The translations under genes were made by a program, and so were the position numbers. Under the pieces are notes generated by a model. It was not told the origin of the DNA. It ran no database searches and was given only the letters and a program-made list of their open reading frames with translations. A stretch of DNA of 64,000 nucleotides from Dongia sp. (GTDB taxonomy: Bacteria > Pseudomonadota > Alphaproteobacteria > Dongiales > Dongiaceae): the NCBI RefSeq assembly GCF_041918875.1, contig NZ_JAYRUV010000015.1, forward strand, positions 28,139 to 92,138, given 5' to 3'. Position 1 is the stretch's first letter. Every line of letters starts with the position of its first letter. Below, in pieces: positions 5,453 to 47,184 of this stretch.

Positions 5453-5525
5453 TTCCTAGCGCACATGGCAAGCCTCTCTCGCAGCATGATTTGCCGGAGA
5501 GAATAGTGTGCGATTTCGAGCGCCG

Positions 5526-6545
<1,020 letters not shown>

Positions 6546-14150: not shown

Positions 14151-14840
14151 CTATTTCTCGTCGCCCATGTCGCCGGGCACGCCATAGGAGGGCGCTGCAT
14201 TGGGATCGAGGGCGCGGGTGATATAGGCGTCCATCTGCGGCTGGTAATCCTCCCACAGGCGTTTCAGGCGCACGATGGGGTTGTCATCGCTCCAATCGAT
14301 GCGGAGATCCACCAATGGCCAGCTCTGTTCATGGACAACGAGGAGCCCTGCCGAATGGACCGGACCCATTTCGCCGCCGGCGACGATGCCGGCTTCCAAG
14401 CCGAGCAGCAGGCGGTCGGCCAGATGCCGGCCTTTCGATTGCGCGAAGACCTTGGCCATTACGGCGGGAACGTCCGGGTTTTGCAGCAGGTTGCCGGCGC
14501 CGACGCAATCCTCGCCCGGCGCCACATTGTTGGTGCCCAGCGTCTTGGCGCCGGACCAGAAGGCGGTACGCCCCTTGGCATCGATCATCGTGACCTGGCG
14601 ATGCTCCGGCGAATGGGCCTTGGCCATCAGCGCGTTCATCGCCTCGGGCGCGCTCATGCCTTTTTCCAGGAGGTCGAGTCCCTGATTGCCGAGCCGCGGG
14701 TCGGTCACGTTCTGCGTCGCCACCGCGCCCACGCCGGCCCTGGCCCAGGGACAGCGCGACGCCACGGCGATCGAGGAGGTGGTGATCGCCACACCGAACA
14801 TACCGGTTTCGGCGCAGCGGCCGACAAGCGAGAAGGTCAT
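14151..14840 (-). CDS. DUF1028 domain protein (Ntn-hydrolase-like)
   Basis: True start MTFSLVGRC; GVGAVATQN, AGNLL, AGGE, SAGLLV, VDLRID. Confidence 0.85.
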   Translation of the reverse strand: MTFSLVGRCAETGMFGVAITTSSIAVASRCPWARAGVGAVATQNVTDPRLGNQGLDLLEKGMSAPEAMNALMAKAHSPEHRQVTMIDAKGRTAFWSGAKTLGTNNVAPGEDCVGAGNLLQNPDVPAVMAKVFAQSKGRHLADRLLLGLEAGIVAGGEMGPVHSAGLLVVHEQSWPLVDLRIDWSDDNPIVRLKRLWEDYQPQMDAYITRALDPNAAPSYGVPGDMGDEK

Positions 14841-14854
14841 GGAAGGCCCGATCC

Positions 14855-15379
14855 TTATTTCTTGCGGGCCGCCCTCTTCTTTGCCGTCTTCTTGGCGCGG
14901 TCCGCCTTGTCGGCGGTGTCCTTCCATTGCAAGGCAGCGGGCGGCTCCGGAATATTCTTCATACGACTTTCCGGGATCACCGCATAGGCGTCGATTTCCA
15001 TGACCCATTCCGGGCGCGCCAACCCTTGCACGACCAACCCGGTCGAAACCGGATAGACACCCTTCAGCCACTTGCCGACGACCTTATAGACCGCCTCGCG
15101 GTAGCGCGGGTCGGTGATATAGATGACGATCTTGCAGATGTCGGCGAGCTTGCCGCCCTGCTCTTCCAGGAGTTGGCGAACATTGCGCATGGCCTGTTCG
15201 GACTGGGCCGCCGCATCGCCGACGCCCACCGTCGATCCGTCCAGCGCCTGGCCGACCTGGCCACGCAGGAAGATGGTATTGCCGGCGCGGACCGACATCG
15301 AGAGGTCGTTGTCGAGGCTTTGTTCCGGGTAAGTCTTCTTGGTGTTGAACTTGCGCAAACGCACATGGCTGTAGGTCAT
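14855..15379 (-). CDS. Rid (YjgF/YER057c/UK114) family protein with a basic C-terminal tail
   Basis: FLRGQVG, AQSEQAMRNV, DICKIVIY, YPVSTGLVV, EIDAYAV. Confidence 0.85.
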   Translation of the reverse strand: MTYSHVRLRKFNTKKTYPEQSLDNDLSMSVRAGNTIFLRGQVGQALDGSTVGVGDAAAQSEQAMRNVRQLLEEQGGKLADICKIVIYITDPRYREAVYKVVGKWLKGVYPVSTGLVVQGLARPEWVMEIDAYAVIPESRMKNIPEPPAALQWKDTADKADRAKKTAKKRAARKK

Positions 15380-15382
15380 GAC

Positions 15383-16849
15383 TTATTTCTTCTTCCACTG
15401 GTCGAGGACACGGTCTGAGAGACCCGCGCAATCCTTTACATAAGAGAGCGCGTTGCTCATATCGAAATTCATATAGACGGCATTGAGATGCGCAAAGGGC
15501 GGCGACTGAGCGAAAAGCTCGAACGTCACCATATGCCCGGCACGGTCGGAATTGAGCAGATCGCGCGCAAAGGCCAGCAGCTTGCGCCTGTCCTCGGCCT
15601 GCCAGAACTCATTGACGGAATAGTATTTCTCCATCCAATCCTTGATTTCCGGATGGTCGAAGGTGGCCTTGTCCGGGGTGACGCAGATCTGGCCGCCGCA
15701 GAGTTCGCGTGCCAGGTGCATCATCGCCGGCAATTGCGAGATCGCGACATAGCGCCCCGTATAAAGCAGCGACTGGTTCGGCATGAGGAGACCGCCCGGG
15801 CTCTTCTGCGCCGTGGCGATCGCCGCTGTGAGATGCGCGTTTATGGTCTCGCGGTACTGCATCAAAAGCGCCAGCTTCTCGCGCACCGCCTGCTGGGCAT
15901 CGAGGCCGGTCTGCTTGGCGTTGAACGCCGCGGCCCCCAGCAGCATGTCGGCGATATAGAGAACCCGCAGAACGAAGGGATAGGCGCTGTAGCGGTGCAG
16001 CGTGCCGCGAATGAAGGCCGCCGCCCGCGTGTGGCGATAGAACAGCACGTTTTCCCACGGAATCAGCACATCGTCGAAGACCAGCAAGGTATCCACCTCG
16101 TCGGCGCGGTTGGAAAGCGGATAGTCGTCCGCCGCGGCACGGCCGGTAAAGCCCGTGCGGCAGATATGCTTGAGGCCCGGCGAACCCATATCGCAGATGA
16201 AGCCCAGGGCGTAATCGCTGAGCTTGTCGTCGCCCCAGTTGGCGATCGTCGGCTTCACAAATGCCTGGTTGGCATAGGCCGCAGCCGTCTCGTATTTGGC
16301 GCCGCGCACGATGATGCCCTTGTCGGTTTCCTTGACCAGGTGCAGCAGCATGTCCGGATCCTGGTCCTGCGGCCGCTTCGAGCGATCGCCCTTGGGATCG
16401 GTATTGGCCGAGACATGGAAAGTGTCGGAGGTCAGCACGTGCTGGATATGATTCTCGATATTCTTCGAGAATTGCGGATCGACCTCGTTGAGAATGTCGC
16501 GCCCGTCATAGAGCGACCACATCTCGCCCACCGTCTCGTCGCCGATGCGGACTGCATAACCCTTGATGTCGCGCATTACCGTGTCGATCGCCTGGCGCTT
16601 GGCATGCCAGTCTTCCTGGTTGTGCGGCAGCTTGTAGCCGATGCAGTTCTCCTGCCCCGTCTTCTCGTCGCGATAGGCCATGACAGGCTTGGTCCTGGCC
16701 TCGTGCGCCATGTCGTAGATGCGGGCCCGGATATCGACGATCGGCTTGAAGGCGGGATGCGCGGTGACATCCTTCACCTTTTCGCCGTTGATCCAGATCT
16801 GGCGGCCGTCTTTCAGGCTGTCGCGGTATTGGGCACCGGTCCGCAGCAT
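15383..16849 (-). CDS. 4-hydroxyphenylacetate 3-hydroxylase family (HpaB/PvcC-like) two-component monooxygenase, oxygenase subunit
   Basis: MLRTGAQYRDSLKDGRQIWINGEKVKDVTAHPAF N-terminus, DPKGDRS, GIIVRGAK, DEVDTLLVFDDVLIPWENV. Confidence 0.88.
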   Translation of the reverse strand: MLRTGAQYRDSLKDGRQIWINGEKVKDVTAHPAFKPIVDIRARIYDMAHEARTKPVMAYRDEKTGQENCIGYKLPHNQEDWHAKRQAIDTVMRDIKGYAVRIGDETVGEMWSLYDGRDILNEVDPQFSKNIENHIQHVLTSDTFHVSANTDPKGDRSKRPQDQDPDMLLHLVKETDKGIIVRGAKYETAAAYANQAFVKPTIANWGDDKLSDYALGFICDMGSPGLKHICRTGFTGRAAADDYPLSNRADEVDTLLVFDDVLIPWENVLFYRHTRAAAFIRGTLHRYSAYPFVLRVLYIADMLLGAAAFNAKQTGLDAQQAVREKLALLMQYRETINAHLTAAIATAQKSPGGLLMPNQSLLYTGRYVAISQLPAMMHLARELCGGQICVTPDKATFDHPEIKDWMEKYYSVNEFWQAEDRRKLLAFARDLLNSDRAGHMVTFELFAQSPPFAHLNAVYMNFDMSNALSYVKDCAGLSDRVLDQWKKK

Positions 16850-16963
16850 CGGTAGGTCACTCCCCGTTTTTATTATTGGCATGCGTTCAATTCGCAACAT
16901 CTTGCTCGCAACACCCGGCAATGAGAAAATATTTTTATCTTTCGAATTGGATCGGATTTATCA

Positions 16964-17863
16964 ATGCCGTTTACCCTGAAGCAATTGCGTTATTTCGTGG
17001 CGACCGCCGAAACCGGCTCGGTTACGCTGGCGGCGCAGCGGGTCAACATCTCGCAGCCATCGGTCTCCGCCGCCATTGCCGAACTTGAGTCGCGCTTCGG
17101 TGTCGACCTTTTCGTCCGGCACCACGCCCAAGGTCTTACCCTCACCGCGGCCGGCCGCGAACTTCTGACCGATGCGAAAAGCCTGCTCGACCATGCCGAC
17201 GATGTCCGATTGGGGGCCATGGGCCTGGGCCAGGAGGTGGCGGGCGAGCTGCATATCGGCTGCTTCCAGACCGTGGCGCCCCTGGTGCTGCCGCGCCTCA
17301 TCGGTGCGCTGGCCGCAAGCCATCCGGAAATCGGCGTGAAACTGCACGAACATCACGTGCAGGGCGTCCTCGACGGCTTGCGCGCCGGTGAGTTCGAATT
17401 CGCCCTTACCTACGATCTCGGCCTCGACGACGATATCGAGTTCGACGCGCTGACAGAGGTGCCGCTCCATAGCATTCTCGCCAAGGATCATCCGCTTGCC
17501 AGACGCCGCAGCGCCGCCATCGCCGACCTCATCGCCTATCCGATGATATTGCTGGGCCTGCCCCACAGCCGCGACTATTTCCTCTCGATCATCTATGGTC
17601 TGGGCCTGCAGCCGCGCGTGGCTTACGAAACGCCGAGCTTCGAGATGGTGCGCGGCCTCGTCGCCAATTCCGACGCCTTCTCGATCATGCATTCCCGGCC
17701 CTTGAGCGACTGGTCGCTCGATGGACGGCGCCTCGTCTTCCTGCCGATCGAGGAAAAGCTGCGTCCGACCCGCCTCGGCCTTGCACGACTGAAAAAGCTG
17801 CGTCCGACCAAACGAGCCCTCGCCTTCACGGAACTCTGCCGACGGCACTTCGCGGCGCATTAG
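16964..17863 (+). CDS. LysR-type regulator, divergent from the monooxygenase operon
   Basis: FTLKQLRYFVATAETGSVTLAAQRVNISQPSVSAAI; LFVRHHAQG. Confidence 0.92.
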   Translation: MPFTLKQLRYFVATAETGSVTLAAQRVNISQPSVSAAIAELESRFGVDLFVRHHAQGLTLTAAGRELLTDAKSLLDHADDVRLGAMGLGQEVAGELHIGCFQTVAPLVLPRLIGALAASHPEIGVKLHEHHVQGVLDGLRAGEFEFALTYDLGLDDDIEFDALTEVPLHSILAKDHPLARRRSAAIADLIAYPMILLGLPHSRDYFLSIIYGLGLQPRVAYETPSFEMVRGLVANSDAFSIMHSRPLSDWSLDGRRLVFLPIEEKLRPTRLGLARLKKLRPTKRALAFTELCRRHFAAH

Positions 17864-18193: not shown

Positions 18194-19744
18194 ATGTCTG
18201 TACCGAGTCATCATGACGAGGACGTAAAAGTCCTCCATAGCATGGGGTATTCCCAGGAGTTGTCCCGCCGCATGGGCGGGTTCCAGAACTTCGCCATCTC
18301 GTTCTCGATCATCTGCATTCTCGCCGGCGGTATCGGCGCTTACGGCGTCGCGTTCGGCGCCGGCGGCGGCGGCTCGGTCGGTATCGGCTGGCTGGTCGGT
18401 TCTTTCTTTGCACTCGTCGTTGCTGCGGCGATGGGCCAGATTGCTTCCGCCTATCCGACCGCGGGCGGCCTCTATCACTGGGGTTCGATCCTCGGCGGCA
18501 AGGGCTGGGGCTGGGCCACGGCATGGATCAATCTCCTTGGCCTGCTCTTCGTCGTCTCCTCGGTGAACTATGGTGTCTATCTGCTGCTGCGCGACCTCGT
18601 TCTGGTCGGCATCTTCGGTATGGATCCCGAGAGCTTCACCGGCACCCATTTGGTCATCGCGGTGGTTCTCATCACGCTGACGCAGGCTTATCTGAACTAC
18701 GCCGGCATCAAGGTGACCACGATCCTCACCGATTTCTCAGGCTATCTCATCCTGGGTACGGCGGTGATCCTGATCGCGGGCTTCCTGTTCGGCTCGTCAG
18801 TGCCGCTCGACTTCTCGCGCATCGTCACCTTCACCAACAATACCGGTGAGCCTGGCGCCAACATGTGGCCACAGACGGGCAGCCTGTTCTTTGCCTTCGT
18901 CCTCGGCCTGCTGCACGTCTGCTACACCATCACCGGTTTCGACGCTTCCGCACATACCTCGGAAGAGACCCGTGATGCGCAGCGCGCCGTGCCGCGCGGC
19001 ATGCTGACGTCGGTGTTCTGGTCGGCGGTGTTCGGTTGGCTCCTCGTTGTCGCCGTGCTGCTCGCCATGCCCGACACCGCGGAAGCTGCCAAGCAGGGTT
19101 GGTCGGTGTTCTACTGGACGCTCGATTCGACCAGCCTGCCGTCCTGGCTGAAGAGCCTTCTCGGCGTCGCGATCGTTATTGCGAACTACCTGTGCGCTCT
19201 GGCCGGCATGACCTCGCTTTCGCGCATGATCTACGCGTTCGCGCGCGACGGCGGCATTCCGGGCGCATCGAAGTTCCTGCGCCAGGTCAGCCCGAAACAC
19301 CGCACTCCCGGTGCGGCGATCTGGGTTGGTGCCGCGCTCTGCATCGTACTCGGCTTGCTCGCCGGCAACAACGAAAAGGCCTACATCATCCTGGCATCTG
19401 GCTGCGCGGTGTTCCTTTACGTCTCCTACATCATGCCGATCGGCGCGGGCCTCTTCGCCGAAGGTAAGAGCTGGACGAAGAAGGGTCCCTTCAGCCTCGG
19501 CGTCTGGTCGAAGCCGATTGCCGTCGTCGCCATTATTGGCGGCGCCATCCTCGCCTTCGTCGGCTTCCAGGAGCCATATCAGCTCGTCGGCTACTTCCTT
19601 GCAGGAACCGTCGCCGCGCTGATCGTGATCTGGTTTACCTTTGAGAAGAGCCGGTTTCCTGGCCCGCCGCTCACCGAAGCGGACGTCAAGGCCCGTCAGG
19701 CCGAGATTGCTCGGGAAGAAGCGGCGCTGGGTGGCGCTGGCTGA
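18194..19744 (+). CDS. APC-family amino acid/amine permease
   Basis: MGYSQELSRRMGGFQNFAISFSII, SAYPTAGGLYHW, GFDASAHTSEE, SRMIYAFARDGG; many hydrophobic segments. Confidence 0.92.
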   Translation: MSVPSHHDEDVKVLHSMGYSQELSRRMGGFQNFAISFSIICILAGGIGAYGVAFGAGGGGSVGIGWLVGSFFALVVAAAMGQIASAYPTAGGLYHWGSILGGKGWGWATAWINLLGLLFVVSSVNYGVYLLLRDLVLVGIFGMDPESFTGTHLVIAVVLITLTQAYLNYAGIKVTTILTDFSGYLILGTAVILIAGFLFGSSVPLDFSRIVTFTNNTGEPGANMWPQTGSLFFAFVLGLLHVCYTITGFDASAHTSEETRDAQRAVPRGMLTSVFWSAVFGWLLVVAVLLAMPDTAEAAKQGWSVFYWTLDSTSLPSWLKSLLGVAIVIANYLCALAGMTSLSRMIYAFARDGGIPGASKFLRQVSPKHRTPGAAIWVGAALCIVLGLLAGNNEKAYIILASGCAVFLYVSYIMPIGAGLFAEGKSWTKKGPFSLGVWSKPIAVVAIIGGAILAFVGFQEPYQLVGYFLAGTVAALIVIWFTFEKSRFPGPPLTEADVKARQAEIAREEAALGGAG

Positions 19745-19771
19745 TCCCACAGCAAATCAACAAATCACCTG

Positions 19772-19806
19772 GGGAGGCAGTGCAAACTGCCTCCCTTTTT
19801 CTTTTT
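19772..19806 (+). terminator. Intrinsic terminator of the permease gene
   Basis: GGGAGGCAG-TGCAAA-CTGCCTCCC followed by TTTTTCTTTTT. Confidence 0.85.
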
Positions 19807-19811
19807 ATGGC

Positions 19812-19840
19812 TTGACCTTTCCGAGGCTCAATCACACACT
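19812..19840 (+). promoter_or_regulatory. sigma70-type promoter for the riboswitch/GS-like transcript
   Basis: TTGACC-17 nt-CACACT, 15 bp upstream of aptamer 1. Confidence 0.6.
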
Positions 19841-19855
19841 CCGCCCGCAAAATCC

Positions 19856-20048
19856 TCCGACCTCGGGAGAGATCGGTATGTTCGCGCGTACCGGCGCCGA
19901 AGGAGCAACCGCCCCCGGAAACTCTCAGGCAAAAGGACCAGGTCGGAACCGACATCTCTGGAAAGCAGGCGGCGGACGTCGTCGCCTCACCGACGGAGTA
20001 AACTGGAAACCTTCCAGTGAATCTCTCAGGTCTCAAGGACAGAGGGGG
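19856..20048 (+). ncRNA. Tandem glycine riboswitch (two aptamers)
   Basis: Aptamer 1: TCCGACCT..GGAGAGA..CGCCGAAGGAGCAA..GAAACTCTCAGGCAAAAGGAC..AGGTCGGA (P1 closes). Aptamer 2: CTCTGGAAAG..CACCGACGGAG..AATCTCTCAGG..GGACAGAG. Confidence 0.92.
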
Positions 20049-20182
20049 GCTCGCCGGCGACTGTGAGGCCGGCCGCACCAAGCCGACGTCGGGGAGCCGC
20101 TGACCTCAGCCAAGACATCGTTGCCGCCTCATCACGCGCGGCCTAAATTCCAATTCATCGATCGAACAGGGGGTTCACAAAA

Positions 20183-21556
20183 ATGCCGTTGAAACCGGAA
20201 CAGGTTAAAACCATCGCTCAGGCCAAGAAGATCGTCGAGGAACGCGGTCTCACGCATATCAAGGTCGGCGTCTTCGATGGCGACGCCATCCTGCGCGGCA
20301 AATACATGTCGAAGGCCAAGTTCTTTTCGGCGCTCGAAGGTGGCTTCGGCTTCTGCGACGTGGTGCTCGGCTGGGACAATCAGGACCAGCTCATCGACGG
20401 CCTCGACTATACCGGCTGGCACACGGCCTATCCCGACGCCTGGGCGCGCATCATCCCCGAGACCTGCCGCGACCTGCCCATGGAAGATAACGGCCTCTTC
20501 TTCCTCTCCGAATTCGTCAACAAGGCCGAAGAGATCTGCGCGCGCGGTACGTTGCGCCGCGTCCTCGACAGGGCCGCCAAGATGGGCTTCGACGTCTATT
20601 CGGCGCTCGAGTTCGAATTCTTCATGTTCGACGAAACGCCGGAAAGCATCCGCGAGAAGAACTACAAGAACCTGACGCCGATGACCCCCGGCTGGTTCGG
20701 CTATTCGGTCATCCGCAACTCGGTCTGGTCCGAACTCTATCAGGACATTCTCGACATGTGCGAAAAGATGCGCATGCCGATCGAGGGCCTGCACACCGAA
20801 ACCGGCCCCGGCGTGCTCGAAGCAGCGCTCGGCGTCACCTCGGCGCTTGAAGCCGCCGATCGCGGCGCCCTCTTCAAGACCTTCATGAAGGTGCTGGCGC
20901 AGCGCCGTGGCCTGATGGCGACCTTCATGGCGAAATGGTCGAACTCCTATCCCGGCCAGTCCGGCCACATCCACATTTCCTTGAAGGGCAAGGATGGCAA
21001 GGCGGTCTTCCACGACCCGAAGAAGCCGCACAACATTTCCGACAAGATGCGCTGGTTCATCGGCGGTCAGCAGACCTTGATGCCGGAAGTTCTGGGCATG
21101 GTCTCGCCGACCGTGAACTCCTATTCGCGCCTCATCCCCGGTTTCTGGGCGCCGACCAACGCCACCTGGGGCGTCGAGAACCGCACTTGCGCGCTCCGCG
21201 TCATTCCGGGCTCGGAGAAATCGCAGCGCGTCGAATACCGCATCGCCGCCGCCGATTGTAACCCCTATCTGGCGCTGGCCGCCGCGATCGGTTCCGGCCT
21301 CTACGGCATCGAAAACAAGATTGAGCCGCAACCCGCCATCGTCGGCAATTCCTACGAGATGAAGCACCCGGCCAAGCTCGATCTGCCGCAGACCCTGTGG
21401 GAAGCCGCCCAGCGCCTGCGCAAGTCGAAGGCCGCGCGCGAATTGTTCGGCGATGCCTTCGTCGAACATCATGCCGGCACGCGTGAGCATGAGGAGCGCG
21501 AGTTCCGCAAGCACATCACCGATTGGGAACTCGCCCGCTACTTCGAAATCATCTGA
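20183..21556 (+). CDS. Glutamine-synthetase-like gamma-glutamyl-amine ligase (PuuA/PauA/ethanolamine glutamylase type)
   Basis: LRGK, ALEFEFF, GLHTETGPGVLE, ATFMAK, GQSGHIHISL, WGVENRTCALR, RVEYR; flap reads GFWAP where true GS has GYEAP. Confidence 0.9.
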   Translation: MPLKPEQVKTIAQAKKIVEERGLTHIKVGVFDGDAILRGKYMSKAKFFSALEGGFGFCDVVLGWDNQDQLIDGLDYTGWHTAYPDAWARIIPETCRDLPMEDNGLFFLSEFVNKAEEICARGTLRRVLDRAAKMGFDVYSALEFEFFMFDETPESIREKNYKNLTPMTPGWFGYSVIRNSVWSELYQDILDMCEKMRMPIEGLHTETGPGVLEAALGVTSALEAADRGALFKTFMKVLAQRRGLMATFMAKWSNSYPGQSGHIHISLKGKDGKAVFHDPKKPHNISDKMRWFIGGQQTLMPEVLGMVSPTVNSYSRLIPGFWAPTNATWGVENRTCALRVIPGSEKSQRVEYRIAAADCNPYLALAAAIGSGLYGIENKIEPQPAIVGNSYEMKHPAKLDLPQTLWEAAQRLRKSKAARELFGDAFVEHHAGTREHEEREFRKHITDWELARYFEII

Positions 21557-21569
21557 TCGACCAAACAAT

Positions 21570-21604
21570 GCCTGCCTCGTTCACCGAGGCAGGCGCTTTT
21601 CTTT
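21570..21604 (+). terminator. Terminator-like hairpin between the GS-like gene and the ALDH
   Basis: GCCTGCCTCG-TTCAC-CGAGGCAGGC then GCTTTTCTTT. Confidence 0.7.
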
Positions 21605-21627
21605 CGTTCAACACCCTGAGGTTACCC

Positions 21628-23019
21628 ATGGCCGCCATGCAGAAGACCATCACGCCGATCGACAGCACCGTTTATGTCGAACGCCCCTACAACAGTCCGG
21701 CGGAAATCGCGGCCACGTTGCAGAATGCCGCCAAGGCGCAGAAGGAATGGCGCAAGGTTTCGATTGCCGAGCGCGCCAGGATCCTCAATAAGGCCGTCGA
21801 CGAATTCCTCAAAGGCAAGGATAAACACGCCGAGGAGATCACCCGCCAGATGGGCCGGCCAATCTCGCAAAGCCCGTTCGAAATGCGCGGCTTCGAAGAG
21901 CGCGCCCGCTTCATGATCAACCTGGCGCCCGAAGCGCTGGCCGATGTCAGCTTCACCGACAAGCCGGGCTTCACCCGCGTCCTCCATCGCGAGCCGCTGG
22001 GCGTCGTCTTCATCGTGGCGCCCTGGAACTACCCCTATCTCACCTCGGTCAACGGCGTCGTCCCGGCGCTGATGGCTGGCAATGCCGTGATCCTCAAGCA
22101 CTCCGCCCAGACACCGCTTTGCGCCGAGGATTTCCAGGCCGCCTTCGACGCCGCCGGCCTGCCCAAGGGTCTGTTCCAGCATCTCGTTCTCACCCATGAC
22201 GACACCGCCAAGGTCATCGCCGCACCCGAAGTCGCCTATTGCAACTTCACCGGCTCGGTCGCCGGCGGGCATGCCGTGCAGCAGGCGGCGCTCGGCAAGT
22301 TCATGGGCCTGGGACTTGAGCTCGGCGGCAAGGACCCGGCCTATGTCCGCGCCGATGCCAACCTCCAGCATGCCGTCGAGAACCTGGTCGATGGCGCCAT
22401 GTTCAATTCCGGCCAGTGCTGCTGCGCCATCGAGCGCATCTATGTGCATGAAAGCCTTTACGACAAGTTCGTCGACGGCTTTGTCGACCTCACCAAGAAG
22501 TACAAGCTCGGCAACCCGCTGGACACGGCCACCAATCTCGGGCCGATGGTCCGCACCTCGGCCGCCGAATTCGTACGCGGCCAGGTGGCCGATGCGGTGA
22601 AACATGGTGCCAAGGCTCTCATCGACACCAAGCTGTTTGCTGCCGACAAGCCGGGGACGCCCTATGTGGCCCCGCAGGTTCTGGTCGATGTCGACCATTC
22701 CATGTCGGTGATGTCGGAAGAAAGCTTCGGCCCGGTCATCGGCATCATGAAGGTGAAGAACGACGACGAAGCCGTGAAGCTGATGAACGACAGCCAGTAC
22801 GGCCTCACGGCGGCCCTCTGGACCATGGACGAGAAGGCGGCCCGGCAGATCGGCAACGAGCTCGAGACCGGCACGGTCTACATGAACCGTTGCGATTATC
22901 TCGATCCGGCCCTGGCCTGGGTCGGTGTCAAGAATTCCGGCCGCGGCGCTACCCTGTCGCGCGTCGGCTACGAAATGTTGACCCGGCCGAAGTCGTTCCA
23001 CTTCCGCACTCAGCTCTGA
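21628..23019 (+). CDS. Aldehyde dehydrogenase
   Basis: APWNYPY, FTGSVAGG, LELGGKDP, FNSGQCCCAIER, EESFGP. Confidence 0.93.
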   Translation: MAAMQKTITPIDSTVYVERPYNSPAEIAATLQNAAKAQKEWRKVSIAERARILNKAVDEFLKGKDKHAEEITRQMGRPISQSPFEMRGFEERARFMINLAPEALADVSFTDKPGFTRVLHREPLGVVFIVAPWNYPYLTSVNGVVPALMAGNAVILKHSAQTPLCAEDFQAAFDAAGLPKGLFQHLVLTHDDTAKVIAAPEVAYCNFTGSVAGGHAVQQAALGKFMGLGLELGGKDPAYVRADANLQHAVENLVDGAMFNSGQCCCAIERIYVHESLYDKFVDGFVDLTKKYKLGNPLDTATNLGPMVRTSAAEFVRGQVADAVKHGAKALIDTKLFAADKPGTPYVAPQVLVDVDHSMSVMSEESFGPVIGIMKVKNDDEAVKLMNDSQYGLTAALWTMDEKAARQIGNELETGTVYMNRCDYLDPALAWVGVKNSGRGATLSRVGYEMLTRPKSFHFRTQL

Positions 23020-23026
23020 GGCAAGG

Positions 23027-23134
23027 GCCCCCACCCAACCCTCCCCCTGAAGGGAGAGGGCTTTCCGATCGAGTTCGCACCGTCACCTCGCTCCACCTCC
23101 CTCTCCCTTCAGAGGGAGGGTCGGGGTGGGGGGC
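23027..23134. repeat. REP-like element, family A: two inverted ~34-bp palindromic units
   Basis: CCCCCACCCAACCCTCCCCCTGAAGGGAGAGGG ... CCCTCTCCCTTCAGAGGGAGGGTCGGGGTGGGGG; near-identical units at 31330-31436. Confidence 0.85.
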
Positions 23135-23249: not shown

Positions 23250-24638
23250 GTGGCAAACTCCGCCCCAACAGGGGACGAGATTTTGACCGATACCAATCAT
23301 GCCCAAGTGGTGATCGTTGGCGGTGGGGTGGTGGGTTGCGCCATTTTCCGCCGCCTGGCCATGGGCGGGCTGCGGCCCGTCCTGCTGGAGGCTGGCCGCG
23401 ACATCCTGTCGGGCGCCTCCAAGGGCAATAGCGCCCTGCTCCATACGGGCTTCGACGCCCCGCACGGCTCGCTGGAGCTGTCCTGCATGCAGAAGGGCTA
23501 CCGCGAATATCTCGAGATCCGCGAGAAGCTCAATCTGCCGCTGGTGAAGTCCGGTGCCGTGGTCGTTGCCTGGACCGAGGAAGAGCTGGCCAGACTGGAC
23601 GGCATCGTCGCCAAGGCTCATGAAAACGCGGTCGGCGACGCCGTGCGCATCGATCGCGATCAGCTGCGTCGCCTGGAACCGCTCCTCTCGCCCAAGGCCC
23701 TGGGCGGCGTGCATGTACCGGGCGAACATATCGTCGATCCCTGGTCCGCCCCGCTCGCCTACATCCACCAGGGTCTCGCCCATGGCGGCATCGTGCTGCG
23801 CGATTGCCGCGTGACTGGCGGCCATTTCGACGGCGTCTGGCATCTCGAGACCAACCAGGGCGAAGTGACCGCCGATGCCGTCATCAATGCCGCCGGCAAT
23901 CAGGGCGACATCGTCGAGGCGATCAACCGGCCGGCACCGTTCAAGATCACACCGCGCAAGGGCCAGTTCGTCGTTTTCGACAAACCTGCGGCCCGGCTCC
24001 TCAAGGCGATTATCCTGCCGGTGCCCACGGAACGGACCAAAGGCGTCGTCATCTGCCGCACCGCTTTCGGCAATGTGCTGGTCGGCCCCACAGCCGAGGA
24101 TCAGGAAGACCGCGCCACGGCCGCCGTCGACCAGGCGGCGCTGCGCCAGCTCGTGCAGCGCGGCACCGAGATGCTGCCAGGTCTTGCCAATGTCGATGTG
24201 AGTGCTGTCTATGCGGGCCTCCGCCCGGCCACCGAGTTCAAGGATTACCAGATCACCGCCCAGCCCGACCGGCGCTGGATTACCGTGGCCGGCATCCGCT
24301 CCACCGGCCTCACCGGCGCTCTCGGCATTGCGCGGCATGTTGCCGGCCTTTATGGCGCGAGCTTCGGCCGCCTGGGCCAGGCCGAGCCGATCTGGACGCC
24401 GGTCCCCAATCTCTGCGAAGAAAATCCGCGCCCCTATCAGAATCCGCTGGGCCCCGAGATCGTCTGCCATTGCGAACTGGTGACGAAGGACGAAATTGAA
24501 ACTGCCCTCGACGGCACCTTCCCGGCAGGCGATGTTGGCGGCCTCAAACGGCGCACCCGCGCCATGATGGGCCGCTGCCAGGGCTTCTATTGCTGCGCCC
24601 ATGTCATGGCTCTTGCCGAAGGTAAGCTCATCCCATGA
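23250..24638 (+). CDS. GlpA/LhgO-like FAD-dependent oxidoreductase with C-terminal BFD-like [2Fe-2S] domain (start may be TTG 23283)
   Basis: IVGGGVVG, GASKGNSALLHTGFD, PRKGQF, GIRSTGLT, VCHCELVT...KRRTRAMMGRCQGFYC. Confidence 0.85.
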   Translation: MANSAPTGDEILTDTNHAQVVIVGGGVVGCAIFRRLAMGGLRPVLLEAGRDILSGASKGNSALLHTGFDAPHGSLELSCMQKGYREYLEIREKLNLPLVKSGAVVVAWTEEELARLDGIVAKAHENAVGDAVRIDRDQLRRLEPLLSPKALGGVHVPGEHIVDPWSAPLAYIHQGLAHGGIVLRDCRVTGGHFDGVWHLETNQGEVTADAVINAAGNQGDIVEAINRPAPFKITPRKGQFVVFDKPAARLLKAIILPVPTERTKGVVICRTAFGNVLVGPTAEDQEDRATAAVDQAALRQLVQRGTEMLPGLANVDVSAVYAGLRPATEFKDYQITAQPDRRWITVAGIRSTGLTGALGIARHVAGLYGASFGRLGQAEPIWTPVPNLCEENPRPYQNPLGPEIVCHCELVTKDEIETALDGTFPAGDVGGLKRRTRAMMGRCQGFYCCAHVMALAEGKLIP

Positions 24639-25852
24639 GAACGCACGAAGTCGTCATTCTCGGCGCCGGGCCAGCGGGCCTTTCCGCCGCCGCGGAGTTG
24701 AAACGCCTGGGCCACCGCGACATCGTCATCCTCGACCGCGAGCAACAAGGCGGCGGCATCCCCCGCCATTGCGGGCATACGGGCTATGGCCTGCTGCAAT
24801 TCGGGCGGCTGATGACGGGTCCGGATTTTGCCAGGCGCCTGGTCGATACCGTCAGCGACCTCGATTTGCGGCTTGGCCACACGGCGCTGAAGCTGGAACC
24901 CAATGGCCGCATCCAGGTCACCGGTCCGAACGGACCCGAGACCTTGCAGGCCCAGAAGGTCCTGCTGGCCATGGGTGCCCGCGAGACACCGCGCAGTGCC
25001 CGCCTCGTTTCCGGCACCAGGCCTTGGGGCGTCATGAATACCGGCACCCTCCAGCAATTCGCCTATCTCCATGGCAAGGCCCCGTTCCAGCGGCCGATCG
25101 TTATCGGTTCCGAACTGGTGGCCTTCTCCACGCTGCTCACCCTCGGCCATGTCGGCGTCAAGGCCGTGGCGATGATCGAGGAACGCGAACGCATCACGGC
25201 CTGGCGCCCCGGCGATTGGGTGGCGCGCGTTGCCTTCGGCGTGCCGGTCATGACTGGGTGCAGCGAACTCACGATTCTCGGACAGGACCGGGTCGAAGGC
25301 CTGTCCTTCAAGCGCCACGGCAAGATGCGCGTGCTTGAGGGCGACGGCATCGTCCTCACCGGCCAGTTCCGCCCCGAGACGGCCCTGCTCACCCAGAGCC
25401 ATCTCGAACTCGACCCCGGCACGCGCGGGCCCGTGATCGATCAGCTCTATCGCTGCACCGATCCAAGTTATTTTGCCGGCGGCAACCTGTTGCGCGGTGT
25501 CGAAACGGCGGGCCAATGCTACCGCGAAGGCAAGTCGGCGGCGCATGTGATTCACGCAGCCCTTGCCGACAAATTGCCGCCGCCGGTCCCCCCGATCCGG
25601 CTCGAAGCCGCCGGCACGCTCAGTTATGTCTATCCGCAGCGCCTTACCGGCCGCGGCCCTTACGATCCGCTCCTCTTCAAGGCCCGCGCCAGTGTCGCCA
25701 CGAAGGGCACATTGCGCGTCCTTGCCGATGGCAGGGAAATCTGGTCGCGCCCGATCCGCGTCCTCCCCGAACGGCGCATCGCCTGGCGCGTGCCGGCGGT
25801 CGATCTCACGGGCGTACACCACCTCACCATCGACCTTTCCCCGCGCGAGTAA
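24635..25852 (+). CDS. Pyridine nucleotide-disulfide-type FAD oxidoreductase, partner of the GlpA-like subunit
   Basis: ILGAGPAGLSAA, GGIPRHCGHTGYG, LAMGARE, FAGGNLL; ATGA overlap with the upstream gene. Confidence 0.85.
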   Translation: MRTHEVVILGAGPAGLSAAAELKRLGHRDIVILDREQQGGGIPRHCGHTGYGLLQFGRLMTGPDFARRLVDTVSDLDLRLGHTALKLEPNGRIQVTGPNGPETLQAQKVLLAMGARETPRSARLVSGTRPWGVMNTGTLQQFAYLHGKAPFQRPIVIGSELVAFSTLLTLGHVGVKAVAMIEERERITAWRPGDWVARVAFGVPVMTGCSELTILGQDRVEGLSFKRHGKMRVLEGDGIVLTGQFRPETALLTQSHLELDPGTRGPVIDQLYRCTDPSYFAGGNLLRGVETAGQCYREGKSAAHVIHAALADKLPPPVPPIRLEAAGTLSYVYPQRLTGRGPYDPLLFKARASVATKGTLRVLADGREIWSRPIRVLPERRIAWRVPAVDLTGVHHLTIDLSPRE

Positions 25853-25861
25853 TCGATCTCA

Positions 25862-27292
25862 ATGTCCGATTTCGTCTTAGCCATCGATCAGGGCACGACC
25901 GGCACCAAGCTGCATCGCCTCCACACCGACGGACGCTTCCAGACGCTCGATGGGTTCGAACATCGCCAGATCCTGCCGGCGCCGGGGTGGGTCGAACACG
26001 ATCCCGAGGAACTGATCGGCCATCTCAACGGCTGCATCGGCAATGTCGGCAATGCCAAGGCAATCGGTATCGCCAACCAGGGGGAAACGGTTGTCGCCTG
26101 GGACGCCAAGACGAAGCGCGCCATCCATAACGCCATCGTGTGGCAGGATGCCCGCACCAACGATGCCATCGCCGCGTTGAAGCAAGCTGGCCACGAAGAG
26201 ACCACCCTGGCACGCGCCGGCCTGCCGCTCGATCCCTATTTCTCCGCCAGCAAACTGCGCTGGCTGCTGGATCATGTGGATACTGCCAGGCAGCTGCACA
26301 AGCAGGGCCGCCTGCGCCTGGGCACCAGCGACGCTTTCTTCCTGGACCGACTGACGGGAACCTTCGCCACCGACGTCAGCACCGCCTCCCGCACCAGCCT
26401 GATGAACCTCGAAACCCTGGCCTGGGATCCGATGCTGTGCGAACTCTTCGGCGTGCCGATGGAATGCCTGCCGGACATCCGCTCGACGGCCGATGATTTC
26501 GGCGCGGTGGGTAAAGTGCCGGTGACCGCCAATGTGGTGGACCAGCAGGCGGCCCTGTTCGGCCATGGCTGCCGACATGCGGGCGATGCCAAGATCACCT
26601 TCGGAACGGGCGCCTTCGCGCTGTGCGTGGTCGGCGCCAAGCCCCTGCGCGATGTCGGCAGCGGCCTGTTGCCAACCATCGCCTGGCGCCTGCGCGATGC
26701 CGCCCCTGCCTACGCCTTGGACGGCGGCGTCTACAACGCCGCTTCCGCGGTCAATTGGGCGCGCGGCCTGGGGCTCTTTGGCGACTATGCCGAGATCGAC
26801 AGCTTCGCCGCCGCCAGCGCCATTTCGCGCGATATCGCTTTTGTGCCGGCCCTGAGCGGCCTGGGATGTCCCTATTGGGACCGTTCCGCCGCCGGCATGT
26901 GGCTGGGGCTCGGCCTGGACACAAGCAAGTCCGACATGATGCAGGCACTGCTCGAAGGCGTTGCCTTGCGTGCAGGCGAAGTGATTGCCGCCATGTCGCG
27001 CCTGCTGCCGATTGGCAACCGCATCTCGATCGACGGCGGCCTCGCCAAGAACAGCTATTTCGGCACCTTCGCGGCCGACGTGCTGAAGCGCAACATCATC
27101 ATTCCGGCCAGCACCGAACTGACCGGCCTCGGCACGGCGCAATTGGCACTGATTGGCGCCGGCCTCGCCACCGTCGATACCCTGCCGCCTCCACCGGCTC
27201 CCAAGGCGCAACTCAATCCGCAGGGCAGAATCGCCGACGAACATCGCATGAAATTCCACACGGCCGTGGGCCGCAGCAGGAACTGGCGCTGA
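25862..27292 (+). CDS. FGGY-family carbohydrate kinase (glycerol-kinase-like)
   Basis: LAIDQGTTGT, PGWVEHDP, GIANQGET, IVWQDART, DQQAALFG, KITFGTGAF, VPALSGLGCPYW. Confidence 0.9.
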   Translation: MSDFVLAIDQGTTGTKLHRLHTDGRFQTLDGFEHRQILPAPGWVEHDPEELIGHLNGCIGNVGNAKAIGIANQGETVVAWDAKTKRAIHNAIVWQDARTNDAIAALKQAGHEETTLARAGLPLDPYFSASKLRWLLDHVDTARQLHKQGRLRLGTSDAFFLDRLTGTFATDVSTASRTSLMNLETLAWDPMLCELFGVPMECLPDIRSTADDFGAVGKVPVTANVVDQQAALFGHGCRHAGDAKITFGTGAFALCVVGAKPLRDVGSGLLPTIAWRLRDAAPAYALDGGVYNAASAVNWARGLGLFGDYAEIDSFAAASAISRDIAFVPALSGLGCPYWDRSAAGMWLGLGLDTSKSDMMQALLEGVALRAGEVIAAMSRLLPIGNRISIDGGLAKNSYFGTFAADVLKRNIIIPASTELTGLGTAQLALIGAGLATVDTLPPPPAPKAQLNPQGRIADEHRMKFHTAVGRSRNWR

Positions 27293-31441: not shown

Positions 31442-32638
31442 TCAAACCGCCTTCAGCGCACCCAGCAGATCATCGGTCAGATCCGCCGCGTCCTCAAGCC
31501 CCACTGACAGGCGGATGAGCCCGTCGCCGATGCCTTGCTTGGCTTTCTGTTCGGCCGTCAGGCGCTGATGCGTCGTCGTCGCGGGATGCGTGGCGAGCGA
31601 TTTGGAATCGCCCAGATTGTTGGAGATCAGCACCAGTTCCAGCGCGTTGAGGAATCTGAACGCCGCCGCCTTGCCGCCGGCCAGGGACAGCGACAGCATG
31701 GTGCCGCCGCCACTCATCTGCCGCCGCGCCAGTTCCACCTGCGGGAAGCCGTCCAGCGTCGGGTAGTTCACTTCCGACAGCTTGGCATGGCCCTTGAGCG
31801 CCTGCGCGATCTTGAGCGACGTGTCGCATTGCTTCGCGACGCGCAAATCCAGCGTCTCCAGCCCCTTGAGGAGGATCCACGCATTCATCGGGCTGAGGCT
31901 CGGCCCCGTGTGGCGGATGAAGGGTTGCAGCGTCTCGTTGATATACTTCTCGGTCCCCAGGATCACACCGCCCAGGCACCGCCCCTGCCCGTCAATATGC
32001 TTGGTGGCGGAATAGACGACGACGTCGGCACCAAGTCGCAGCGGCTGCTGCAGCAAGGGCGTGGCGAACACATTGTCCACCACCACCGTGGCGCCGGCCT
32101 TGTGCGCAAGATCGCAGACGGCTTTGAGATCGACCAGCCGCAGGCCCGGATTGCTGGGGCTTTCCAGGAACACCGCCTTGGTCGGCTTGGCCAGTGCCGC
32201 CTGCCATTGGTTGAGATCGCGCCCGTCGACGAAGACCGTCTCGACGCCCCATTTCGGCAGGATCTCGGCCAGGATGAACTGGCACGACCCGAACAGGGCA
32301 TCGGAGGCGACAATCCGGTCGCCGGATTTCACCAGGCTGGCCAGGGCCGCGAACACCGCCGCCATGCCGGAAGATGTGGCGCGCGCGGCCTCGGCGCCCT
32401 CAAGCGCCGCCATGCGGCTCTCGAACATCGAAACCGTGGGATTGCCGAAGCGCGAATAGACGAAGCGCGGCTGGCTGTTGTCGAAGGCGGATTCGGCCTC
32501 TTCGGCCGAGGAATAGACATAGCCGGACGACATGTAGATCGTCTCCGACGTTTCCTTGAACTGGCTGCGGAGTTGCCCCGCATGCACCAGCTTCGTTGCC
32601 GCCTTCCAATTCGCTTTGATATCGCGCTTTACCGTCAT
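31442..32638 (-). CDS. metZ: O-succinylhomoserine sulfhydrylase
   Basis: RSQFKETSE, YSRFGNPT, SGMAAV, VVDNVFATP, YSATKHIDGQGR, SNNLGDSKS, RLSVGLE. Confidence 0.93.
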   Translation of the reverse strand: MTVKRDIKANWKAATKLVHAGQLRSQFKETSETIYMSSGYVYSSAEEAESAFDNSQPRFVYSRFGNPTVSMFESRMAALEGAEAARATSSGMAAVFAALASLVKSGDRIVASDALFGSCQFILAEILPKWGVETVFVDGRDLNQWQAALAKPTKAVFLESPSNPGLRLVDLKAVCDLAHKAGATVVVDNVFATPLLQQPLRLGADVVVYSATKHIDGQGRCLGGVILGTEKYINETLQPFIRHTGPSLSPMNAWILLKGLETLDLRVAKQCDTSLKIAQALKGHAKLSEVNYPTLDGFPQVELARRQMSGGGTMLSLSLAGGKAAAFRFLNALELVLISNNLGDSKSLATHPATTTHQRLTAEQKAKQGIGDGLIRLSVGLEDAADLTDDLLGALKAV

Positions 32639-32668
32639 GATCGCCTCGCATAGCCCGGAATCCGGGCA

Positions 32669-32700
32669 CAAAAAAACCCCGACCGATTAAGGCCGAGGTT
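32669..32700 (-). terminator. Intrinsic terminator in the metZ leader (riboswitch expression platform)
   Basis: Minus strand AACCTCGGCC-TTAATC-GGTCGGGGTT-TTTTT between aptamer and metZ start. Confidence 0.8.
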
Positions 32701-32721
32701 GCGCGAAAGATCGCCTTCCTG

Positions 32722-32776
32722 GACCTTTTAGCGTTTGATTTTACGTGGCCGCAATCCGGCACAAATCACCACGGAC
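32722..32776 (-). ncRNA. SAM-II (SAM-alpha) riboswitch
   Basis: Minus strand CCGTGGTGATTTGTGCCGGATTGCGGCCACGTAAAATCAAACGCTAAAAGG matches the SAM-alpha consensus; upstream of metZ. Confidence 0.92.
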
Positions 32777-32921
32777 CCCGGAAACCGGGTATCGGCGCCT
32801 GTTAAGCCATGATTGCCCCCGGCCTGTCAAGCGCTTGGGTCACATAAGAGCGTCTTGTTCAAGCATAGCGCCTCCACTATCAATAAGCGTGGCAAATGAC
32901 AGCGATTGATGGGGGAAATCA

Positions 32922-34079
32922 ATGAGCGAGATCAGTCCGGATCACAGCGGCGCCGTGGCGCAAGGCGGCTTCGGCAGCCGAGCCGGCGCGCCCACCCGCG
33001 CCCATTTCGTCTATGACGGGCGCCTCGGCGAACTCTACTGGATCTTCATCAAGAACACCCTGCTGATGCTGGTCACCTTCAGCATCTGGCGGTTCTGGGG
33101 CAAGACGCGCATCCGCCGTTACCTGTGGTCGCACACCAGCCTTGCCGGCGACCGCTTCGAATATACCGGCACGGGTGGCGAGCTTTTCGTCGGCTTCATC
33201 ATCGTCATGATCGCCTATGTCCTAGGCTCGATCGGCATCCAGGCACTCGGCATAGCCTTGGAGCCGGACTCACCCATTCTCCTGGTGCTGCAGCTGGGTG
33301 TCTCCTTCCTCATTCTCTATCTGGTGTTTGTCGCGCAGTATGCGGCCCAGCGCTATCGCCTGACCCGCACGCTATGGCGCGGCATCAATGGCGGCATGAC
33401 CGGCTCGGCCTGGAAATGGGGAATGAAGGGGATGTGGTTCTCCATCCTCTCCCTCCTGTCGCTCACCCTCGCCTGGCCCTGGGCGCAGATGCGCTTGCTG
33501 AGCGACCGCGTCAATCATTCTTATTTCGGCGACGCGAAGGCCAGCGCGACATTGAAATCCGCAAATGTGTATAAAGCTTACTTTGTGTCGCTCGCGGTAT
33601 TTCTCGTTACCTTTCTTTTCGTGGGGGGCTTTGCCAGTTTAGTCTATGGTTTAATGAACCTAGGCGGCATCGCGAGTGGACAAATGCAGGGTCCGGCTTC
33701 CAACTCGGAGATGGTCGCCGCCTCCCTACCCATACTGGTGATCTTGATCGCCTACGTCTTTATTGCGCCCATAGCCTATAGTTTCTACGTGGTCGCAGTG
33801 GCTCGGGAAGTAGCTTCAACGCTGGAGCTGGGCGGTCTTCGCTTCGCAACGCCGATCACCACGGGCCGCTTGGTCAGCCGCTACTTCTGGAACATCGTCA
33901 TCATCGTGTTCACGTTCGGCCTGGGCTTGCCGATCGCGATTCACCGCACCATGTTGTTCCTCAGTCGCAATATCGAGATCATCGGCGAAATCGACGGTTC
34001 AGCCATCACCCGCGCCGAACTGCCGCGGCCCAAATTCGGCGAAGGCCTGCTGGAGGCGTTCGATCCTGGGATATTGTGA
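32922..34079 (+). CDS. DUF898/YjgN family membrane protein
   Basis: NTLLMLVTFSIWRFWGKTRIRRYLWSHT, DRFEYTGTGGELFVG, RYRLTRTLWRGI. Confidence 0.88.
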   Translation: MSEISPDHSGAVAQGGFGSRAGAPTRAHFVYDGRLGELYWIFIKNTLLMLVTFSIWRFWGKTRIRRYLWSHTSLAGDRFEYTGTGGELFVGFIIVMIAYVLGSIGIQALGIALEPDSPILLVLQLGVSFLILYLVFVAQYAAQRYRLTRTLWRGINGGMTGSAWKWGMKGMWFSILSLLSLTLAWPWAQMRLLSDRVNHSYFGDAKASATLKSANVYKAYFVSLAVFLVTFLFVGGFASLVYGLMNLGGIASGQMQGPASNSEMVAASLPILVILIAYVFIAPIAYSFYVVAVAREVASTLELGGLRFATPITTGRLVSRYFWNIVIIVFTFGLGLPIAIHRTMLFLSRNIEIIGEIDGSAITRAELPRPKFGEGLLEAFDPGIL

Positions 34080-34094
34080 GTGGTATTCCTTTTC

Positions 34095-34186
34095 CTGTCA
34101 TGGCCCGCGCAGGCGGGCCATCCACGAGTTTGTGTGCGGCTAATGAAAGAACTCGTGGATGCCCCGGCCAAGCCGGGACATGACAG
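34095..34186. repeat. REP-like element, family B (GTCAT...ATGAC), composite inverted repeat
   Basis: CTGTCATGGCCCGCGCAGGCGGGCCATCCACGAGTT ... AACTCGTGGATGCCCCGGCCAAGCCGGGACATGACAG. Confidence 0.85.
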
Positions 34187-34211
34187 CGTAGTATAACGAA
34201 CGAGGACCATC

Positions 34212-46984: not shown

Positions 46985-47184
46985 CGGGTTGGGATTGGCA
47001 TGGATGAATGGAAGCGACGGCAACCGCTTCGCAGATAGGCGTTTTTTGCGTCTGCGAAGCCATCGCCGGGAAGCATGGCCGTTCCCCCATTCGCGGCTGC
47101 TATTCCCCCTTTTCCTGCAGGGAAACAAGGCTAGAATGCCGCCCGATTCAATGTCGCCAACACCAGCCAAGGATCGCACAGGCC

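Follow-up and report, generated by a model that had tools for sequence, protein, structure and literature searches.

A conserved tandem glycine riboswitch heads a probable gamma-glutamyl-amine ligase and aldehyde dehydrogenase in Dongia sp.

The window analysed here is a 64,000-nucleotide stretch of the alphaproteobacterium Dongia sp. (family Dongiaceae; NCBI RefSeq assembly GCF_041918875.1, contig NZ_JAYRUV010000015.1, positions 28,139 to 92,138 of the forward strand), and our subject is a tandem glycine riboswitch within it that stands directly before genes for a glutamine synthetase (GS)-like ligase and an aldehyde dehydrogenase (ALDH). An original prediction, made from the letters of the DNA, had placed at this locus a promoter, two complete glycine aptamers, a GS-like gene with a GFWAP flap and an ALDH gene, and each of these was recovered in our analysis. 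The leader and the two genes behind it comprise the following features, in which SD stands for Shine-Dalgarno sequence:

19812-19840, + strand: predicted sigma-70-type promoter, TTGACC (19812-19817), 17 nucleotides, CACACT (19835-19840); from the sequence and recurrence of the -10 in relatives
19853-19950, + strand: glycine aptamer 1 (RF00504, 59.3 bits); pocket U at 19925, preceded by C; polyC loop at 19912-19916
19948-20052, + strand: glycine aptamer 2 (RF00504, 56.1 bits); pocket U at 20026; P3 5' strand at 19986-19995; polyG tail at 20044-20049, the partner in the P5 pseudoknot
20083-20096, + strand: SD-like switch element, not followed by a start codon; from conservation and predicted P3 pairing
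20097-20182, + strand: C-rich untranslated spacer, with a small hairpin at 20121-20146 and the ligase SD GGGGG at 20169-20173
20183-21556, + strand: GS-like gamma-glutamyl-amine ligase (PF00120) of the GFWAP branch, W322 at the flap; likely an ethanolamine gamma-glutamylase
21569-21595, + strand: terminator-like hairpin between ligase and ALDH; comparable hairpin in 7/10 direct-type loci
21628-23019, + strand: ALDH, likely oxidising the gamma-glutamyl-aminoaldehyde

In the Rfam search both aptamers scored above the RF00504 gathering cut-off of 32 bits, the second, which overlaps the first as a same-clan match, being scored once aptamer 1 had been excluded, and the two adjoin as in a tandem glycine riboswitch. 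They lie on the ligase strand, behind the predicted promoter and with no gene in between, that is, in the 5' leader of the ligase. Though a consensus promoter scan of the leader returned no hit and did not flag the TTGACC/CACACT pair, a [CG]A[CGA]ACT hexamer stands exactly 17 nucleotides past TTGAC[CG] in 27/27 ligase-type leaders, with variable spacers; the leaders were cut at the -35, so the -10 alone counts as independent support. The terminator scan found no terminator-like site from aptamer 2 to the ligase ATG, as had been foreseen.

Both aptamers carry the canonical glycine pocket (the P3a pairs and a bulged U), as defined in the passages of PMC7161355 and PMC13104608 used here, and the strings are the same as those of the gcvT copies. 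Across the genome there are four aptamer matches, namely this tandem and a tandem before gcvT on contig C14. Since gcvT thus retains its own riboswitch, the one at the ligase is an additional copy, and the earlier notion that it stands there instead of gcvT has to be abandoned. The match to the gcvT pockets makes glycine the most likely ligand, and a variant-ligand aptamer, sensing ethanolamine or gamma-Glu-Gly, was ruled out for the same reason. The RNA class and its ligand are probably not new.

The pairing of riboswitch and ligase was surveyed, as had been proposed, upstream of ligase orthologs in one family (83 genomes) and at 50 more distant ligase loci outside it, and proved to be conserved. 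The ligase is encoded in 62/83 family genomes, from which 58 loci were mapped, four at contig ends being left out; 57 of the 58 have an intact frame and were classified, and the frameshifted G014 was omitted from the ligase tree, itself a quick tree. Three layouts, together covering 27/58 mapped loci, contain the riboswitch: 1) directly before the ligase, as in the window (10/57 intact loci, with genome G044, at a contig end, adding an eleventh direct leader); 2) before a GbdR-like AraC gene that is followed by the ligase (16/57); and 3) before an EtoX-type TRAP operon followed by the ligase (1/57, genome G005). A further locus has the regulator only and another is cut at the regulator (1/57 each). 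No glycine riboswitch was found at the 50 more distant loci (39 assessed via genome-wide Rfam coordinates and 11 by direct scan). The AraC protein is nearest GbdR, at 143 against a cut-off of 480, and is present in 18/20 genomes of two sister genera and 0/23 of the window's genus; a search of the spacer for its remnant gave short chance-level matches only, and nothing detectable at the protein level.

In a riboswitch tree built on a short alignment, the direct leaders share a clade with one regulator-type group (UFBoot 100), the second regulator-type group joins its own gcvT copies (UFBoot 84), and the G005 copy joins the gcvT copies of outer genera (UFBoot 94). This grouping suggests that the riboswitch was recruited at least twice, and the G005 copy before the TRAP operon is probably an independent gain.

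Two further observations concern the regulator-type loci. The tandem directly before the GbdR-like AraC regulator recurs in 16 mapped genomes (L009-L012 at about 4530-5950, and the G045-G064 loci). In L136 (G055:C2, about 32000-35000) and L011 (1977-2300) a second, near-identical riboswitch, followed by a piece of the regulator gene, lies about 2.6 kb upstream of the first, representing either a local duplication or an assembly artefact.

When nine relatives were compared with the window, differences amounted to 1/918 in the aptamer core columns and 0/90 in the downstream element, against 222/640 in the spacer and 543/1926 at four-fold sites of the ligase; core and switch element are thus essentially invariant while neutral sites diverge by 19-40%. 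Constraint on the core and element appears strong but is unquantified, because the element was picked after the alignment had been viewed and the relatives are not independent. The canonical pocket nucleotides are present in both aptamers of 10/11 direct leaders, G023 having one change. Changes in the G023 leader (L120) affect P1, P3b and the pocket of aptamer 2, and this copy is perhaps in decay.

With regard to direction, a polyC loop and a polyG tail are present in 48/48 tabulated leaders, with run lengths of 5/6 or 4/5 in 47/48. The window riboswitch, with a C-run of 5, a G-run of 6 and no P4 helix in the Rfam alignment, has the features of the ON type. Presence of P5 with absence of P4 is a correlate of ON switches and not proof of direction: in the passages of Torgerson 2020 (PMC7161355) used here, P5 is present in 87% of one ON group and >99% of another, and is absent from the OFF symporter group. 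The corresponding passages of PMC13104608 describe the Neisseria gcvT riboswitch as a translational ON switch, in which aptamer 2 pairs with the ribosome-binding site (RBS) region and Rho was excluded.

Past aptamer 2 and a variable hairpin lies the downstream element CCGACGUCGG(G/A)GAG (20083-20096), the 10-nucleotide core of which is invariant in 11/11 direct leaders. In gcvT leaders and regulator-type leaders the same position is the RBS of the next gene. In the window the ligase ATG lies 86 nucleotides past the element (84-151 across the direct leaders), and the ligase has its own SD. Simple RBS occlusion at the ligase, a form of the translational control that the original prediction had considered, is therefore not supported, the SD-like element being 86 nucleotides from the ligase start and without a start codon. 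A conserved upstream reading frame or translational coupling behind the element was rejected, as the 11 leaders share no start codon and use all three frames. In each of the 11 direct leaders the element is predicted to form a duplex with the P3 strand of aptamer 2 (-14.9 to -17.3 kcal/mol), and in one sister genus it is the polyC loop of aptamer 1 that is complementary to the RBS (-14.5 to -19.1 kcal/mol); these strings are G-rich with several possible partners, and the energies carry no shuffle control, so that the element-P3 helix is a prediction. A constrained-fold accessibility test failed its own control, values in gcvT leaders falling by >0.1 in 8/16, and is not used as support; by this method regulator-RBS accessibility rose in 10/16 leaders. 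The unconstrained fold of the leader was uninformative (z = -0.17). Two public RNA runs (0.07 word share, apparently one data set) held short pieces derived from relatives, none of which spans riboswitch and ligase.

The aptamer-2 P2 loop (19974-19981) and the element (20083-20092) carry the invariant self-complementary strings ACGU/GACGUC in 11/11 direct leaders, and to judge from these strings a loop-loop contact may form between them. A role of the palindromic element as a DNA operator is less likely, as it lies about 240 nucleotides into the transcript.

The protein encoded behind this leader has the GS fold, metal, ATP and glutamate residues and a hydrophobic flap, as expected of a gamma-glutamyl-amine ligase. 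Its PGFWAP aligns to the PGYEAP of true GS structures, such that W322 takes the place of the flap glutamate, and it lacks both this glutamate and the curated score of a true GlnA, falling below every NCBIfam GS cut-off (GlnA 223 against 429 bits). In the passages of PMC6529630 used here, the flap residue is W296 in PauA7 and F331 in GlnA4. These properties speak against the ammonia-using GS that had been considered as the alternative at the outset. Among 80 ligase loci, ALDH is found at 69, Fe-alcohol dehydrogenase (Fe-ADH) at 64, an Eat-like permease at 21 (TIGR00908, 350 bits against a cut-off of 382) and an EtoX-like binding protein at 6. The ALDH and Fe-ADH partners point to an amino alcohol as substrate, rather than to the glycine-like substrates also envisaged in the original prediction; from its genomic context, the ligase is likely an ethanolamine gamma-glutamylase, with ethanolamine the first candidate and a C3 amino alcohol the second. 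The surroundings of the ligase in the window are as follows:

18194-19744, + strand: APC-family amine/amino-acid permease, upstream of the riboswitch promoter; swapped for a TRAP system in some relatives
19771-19796, + strand: terminator-like hairpin with U-tract, closing the permease transcript; terminator scan
23283-27292, + strand: FAD oxidoreductase (glycerol-3-phosphate-oxidase-like), pyridine nucleotide-disulfide oxidoreductase (pyr_redox) and glycerol-kinase-like FGGY kinase
47182-48366, + strand: Fe-ADH, 59% identical to one from a ligase operon

The permease terminator had been correctly anticipated, and since the permease lies upstream of the promoter and has its own terminator, it is likely outside riboswitch control. 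The ligase, Fe-ADH and ALDH of the pathway are all encoded in the window, the Fe-ADH, which adjoins the cluster in many relatives, being displaced here by about 20 kb past it. The FAD/pyr_redox/FGGY trio is usually inside the ligase cluster in this family. Uptake genes of the relatives are Eat-like or EtoX-like, with an FTEA variant in the window's lineage; the window has no EtoX match, and its candidate uptake gene is the uncharacterised APC permease. EutB was found in 0/83 family genomes. The TRAP protein beside the G036 ligase matches PDB 4UAB (E 2.5e-133), which is probably ethanolamine-bound Csal_0678, just as 5DM3 is probably Csal_0679. In G343 the MED193 gene order (RpiR, hydrolase, TRAP, ligase, ALDH) is found with a GFWAP ligase (63%).

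On balance, we favour the interpretation that a canonical, conserved tandem riboswitch heads the ligase-ALDH genes, likely turning ON with glycine, itself the likely end product of ethanolamine gamma-glutamylation; from sequence, conservation and gene context we infer the binding, direction, output and substrate. The ligase would form gamma-Glu-ethanolamide, Fe-ADH and ALDH would convert it to gamma-Glu-glycine, and a hydrolase, for which no gene was located in the cluster, would release glycine and glutamate. The passages of PMC6529630 used here give the GlnA4 chemistry and a predicted ethanolamine route to glycine. In the absence of glycine, the element at 20083-20096 would be paired to the P3 strand of aptamer 2; once glycine is present, the two aptamers would fold, the polyC/polyG pseudoknot would form, and the element would be set free. 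Such ON logic would amount to product induction, a positive feedback starting from basal flux, and the second riboswitch would induce gcvT for glycine disposal. End-product-gated amine glutamylation, as originally proposed, thus keeps its conserved riboswitch and ethanolamine-pointing context, and the gating fits likely as induction and not as feedback repression.

The output is the weakest step of this explanation: the readout would be indirect and most likely at the transcript level, transcripts being either read through or else terminated by Rho or degraded within the C-rich 86-nucleotide spacer. We rate this slightly below an even chance, and it is still the likeliest output given that the element has no start codon and the spacer is untranslated, with C > G in all 11 direct leaders. 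A readout by ribosome standby is possible though less probable, and one by long-range occlusion is unlikely.

Several findings weigh against the favoured interpretation: 1) neither riboswitch nor regulator accompanies the ligase at 28/57 loci (two with short flanks), including G022 inside the riboswitch clade. 2) A terminator-like hairpin parts ligase from ALDH. 3) In constrained folds of 11 leaders, accessibility of the ligase SD did not move consistently (-0.17 to +0.09, by the method that failed its gcvT control). 4) The window's cluster has no hydrolase, and two FGase homologues (45% and 50%) lie elsewhere in other contexts in a genome that is 87% complete. 5) The TFAP-type structures 5DM3 and 11ZS resemble the ligase only distantly (199 and 225 bits), and 5/7 ligases beside EtoX-like genes belong to the TFAP branch, at 27-33% identity. 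6) In the TRAP protein of this lineage, FTEA replaces the ITED of EtoX.

In one genus, g9 (L139, L138, L140, L141 and L150), the pyr_redox and kinase genes are separated by an inserted amidohydrolase gene, whose product is a candidate for the missing gamma-glutamyl hydrolase.

The strongest alternative keeps the same ON switch and makes a C3 amino alcohol (serinol, alaninol or aminopropanediol) the main substrate, giving serine or alanine and glycine only indirectly, with the kinase/oxidase trio as part of the same catabolism. It draws on the FTEAYEVG signature of the TRAP protein beside the lineage's ligase, a subgroup that elsewhere travels with FAD/pyr_redox genes and no ligase match, on a trio scoring below the glycerol kinase and glycerol-3-phosphate oxidase cut-offs in a genome with a second FGGY kinase, and on the 36% identity of the isopropylamine ligase IpuC. 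Against this, GFWAP ligases fill the ethanolamine-ligase slot beside ITED-type EtoX in G343, G005 and L042, the Eat-like permease is the commonest transporter over the 80 loci, and the trio would be equally explained by glycerol freed from phosphatidylethanolamine. No literature on serinol in this connection was found, and we regard this alternative as unlikely.

The TRAP variant is an observation in its own right: EtoX-like proteins with FTEAYEVG and not ITEDYTVG occur at L121:9877-10926 (- strand), L191-L199, L226 and L227. In two other families this subgroup is divergent from DeoR-like, FAD oxidoreductase and pyr_redox genes, with no ligase in the 14 kb examined. Speculatively, these loci could encode an undescribed amino-alcohol route, e.g. 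for serinol, with a kinase and a deaminating oxidase.

Alternatively, the riboswitch might have been rewired to OFF after the platform lost its start codon, with glycine repressing its own production. Feedback on product is a common regulatory logic, the platform now stands without a start codon, and ligase-SD accessibility was slightly lower in 6/11 constrained folds, by the method that failed the gcvT control. However, the ON-type pseudoknot is retained with no P4 helix in the Rfam alignment, the aptamer cores match the gcvT copies, and the sister-genus RBS, being complementary to the polyC loop, would be released on pseudoknot formation, all of which make rewiring improbable. More improbable still is that the riboswitch is what remains of the leader of an AraC regulator gene, since lost, and has ceased to control the ligase. 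The regulator's presence in the sister genera and absence from the window's genus, the several aptamer changes of G023 and the lack of the RNA in G022 would agree with this, but the near-invariance of core and switch element amid neutral divergence argues for retained function, and with no protein-level regulator remnant the deletion itself is unproven. That the enzyme is an ordinary GS, or glutamylates glycine or sarcosine directly, is highly improbable despite the database label 'glutamine synthetase' on all relatives and the presence of E143, E145, E206, E213, H262, R316, R339 and E351, which from general GS knowledge we take to be metal/phosphate residues, as the flap Glu is replaced by Trp, the scores lie below all GS cut-offs, and the fixed ALDH and Fe-ADH partners would be without function if the substrate were ammonia or glycine.

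A broader account, which joins at least two recruitments to induce a glycine-producing route, the AraC cascade, the start-codon-less platform 86 nucleotides off and a possible C3 substrate, is tentative and as a whole rather doubtful; in it the riboswitch-to-regulator cascade could apply AND logic to glycine and substrate.

Some observations in the window stand apart from the switch. A long GC-rich palindromic repeat at 23029-23131, between ALDH and the FAD oxidoreductase, is probably REP/MITE-like, and similar-looking elements follow other window genes. Genes for an HpaB-like flavin monooxygenase, a Rid-family protein and a DUF1028 protein, with a divergent LysR gene, lie at 14151-17863, and many family members, G005 among them, keep this block on the upstream side of the permease-ligase cluster. 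An ordinary SAM-alpha riboswitch (32708-32782, - strand, 59.1 bits) lies upstream of gene 31442-32671, whose product presumably resembles O-succinylhomoserine sulfhydrylase.

Among known systems, the ON-type gcvT/gcvP riboswitches of RF00504, as presented in the passages of PMC7161355 and PMC13104608 used here, share the two aptamers, canonical pockets, polyC/polyG pseudoknot, absence of an intrinsic terminator and a purine-rich downstream element predicted to pair with aptamer 2. The window copy differs in heading genes likely to serve the production of glycine and not its consumption or transport, and in its SD-like element without a start codon; in the sister genera the first gene encodes an AraC-family transcription factor. 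The ethanolamine gamma-glutamylation operon of Chromohalobacter salexigens, Agrobacterium and Phaeobacter MED193 (PMC10132767, main-text passages) has the ligase, ALDH, Fe-ADH and EtoX-like TRAP genes in the order also found in G005 and G343. An RpiR gene and a gamma-glutamylglycine hydrolase adjoin there, and its main text, as far as used here, mentions no riboswitch. The window departs from this operon in its APC permease, in the displacement of its Fe-ADH and in the lack of a hydrolase alongside, and its ligase belongs to a branch far removed from PDB 5DM3. GlnA4 of Streptomyces coelicolor, compared by its description in passages of PMC6529630, is likewise GS-like without the flap Glu, was shown to glutamylate ethanolamine and has a predicted route to glycine; it differs in having Phe and not Trp at the flap, and in control by a protein repressor, EpuRI, with induction by ethanolamine.

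In the eut locus of Enterococcus and Listeria, an adenosylcobalamin (AdoCbl) riboswitch gates ethanolamine use via a regulator. That riboswitch senses the B12 cofactor of the EutBC route, whereas the molecule sensed at the window's locus probably arises as the end product of a route that needs no B12.

The original prediction had held the pairing to be undescribed, and the literature searched agrees. Full-text searches returned no title or abstract start pairing a glycine riboswitch with glutamine synthetase or ethanolamine, and no literature on Dongia and riboswitches. Term searches of the Torgerson genetic-context table (PMC7161355 supplement 3), covering 7/16 'glutamine' and 9/21 'glutamyl' places, gave 0 matches for 'GlnA' and 'Gln-synt'; both 'glutamine synthetase' matches are unrelated third genes, one GlxA row is an opposite-strand second gene and one 'AraC family' row a third gene. 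Sun 2013 (PMC3766115) lists, in the passages used here, only glycine, serine and transport genes, and no such pairing was met in main-text passages of Crum 2019 (PMC6944388), supplements not covered; likewise, as far as used here, two surveys place glycine riboswitches before genes of glycine/serine metabolism, transporters or membrane proteins. We thus appear to have a known riboswitch in a new, real, conserved and apparently unreported regulatory context, one that probably arose more than once and whose detached platform is unusual. A start-codon-less platform acting 86 nucleotides away was not found described for the glycine riboswitch class.

For the biology of these bacteria, the finding means that a glycine riboswitch heads a likely glycine-supplying pathway, in step with a second copy at gcvT. 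This would link the scavenging of phospholipid-derived ethanolamine to one-carbon metabolism via RNA alone. It also lends weight to a function for a large branch of uncharacterised GS-like proteins annotated as glutamine synthetase. Finally, the family offers a natural series (no switch, switch with regulator, switch alone, and switch with TRAP) for studying what becomes of the wiring of a riboswitch once a different gene comes first behind it.

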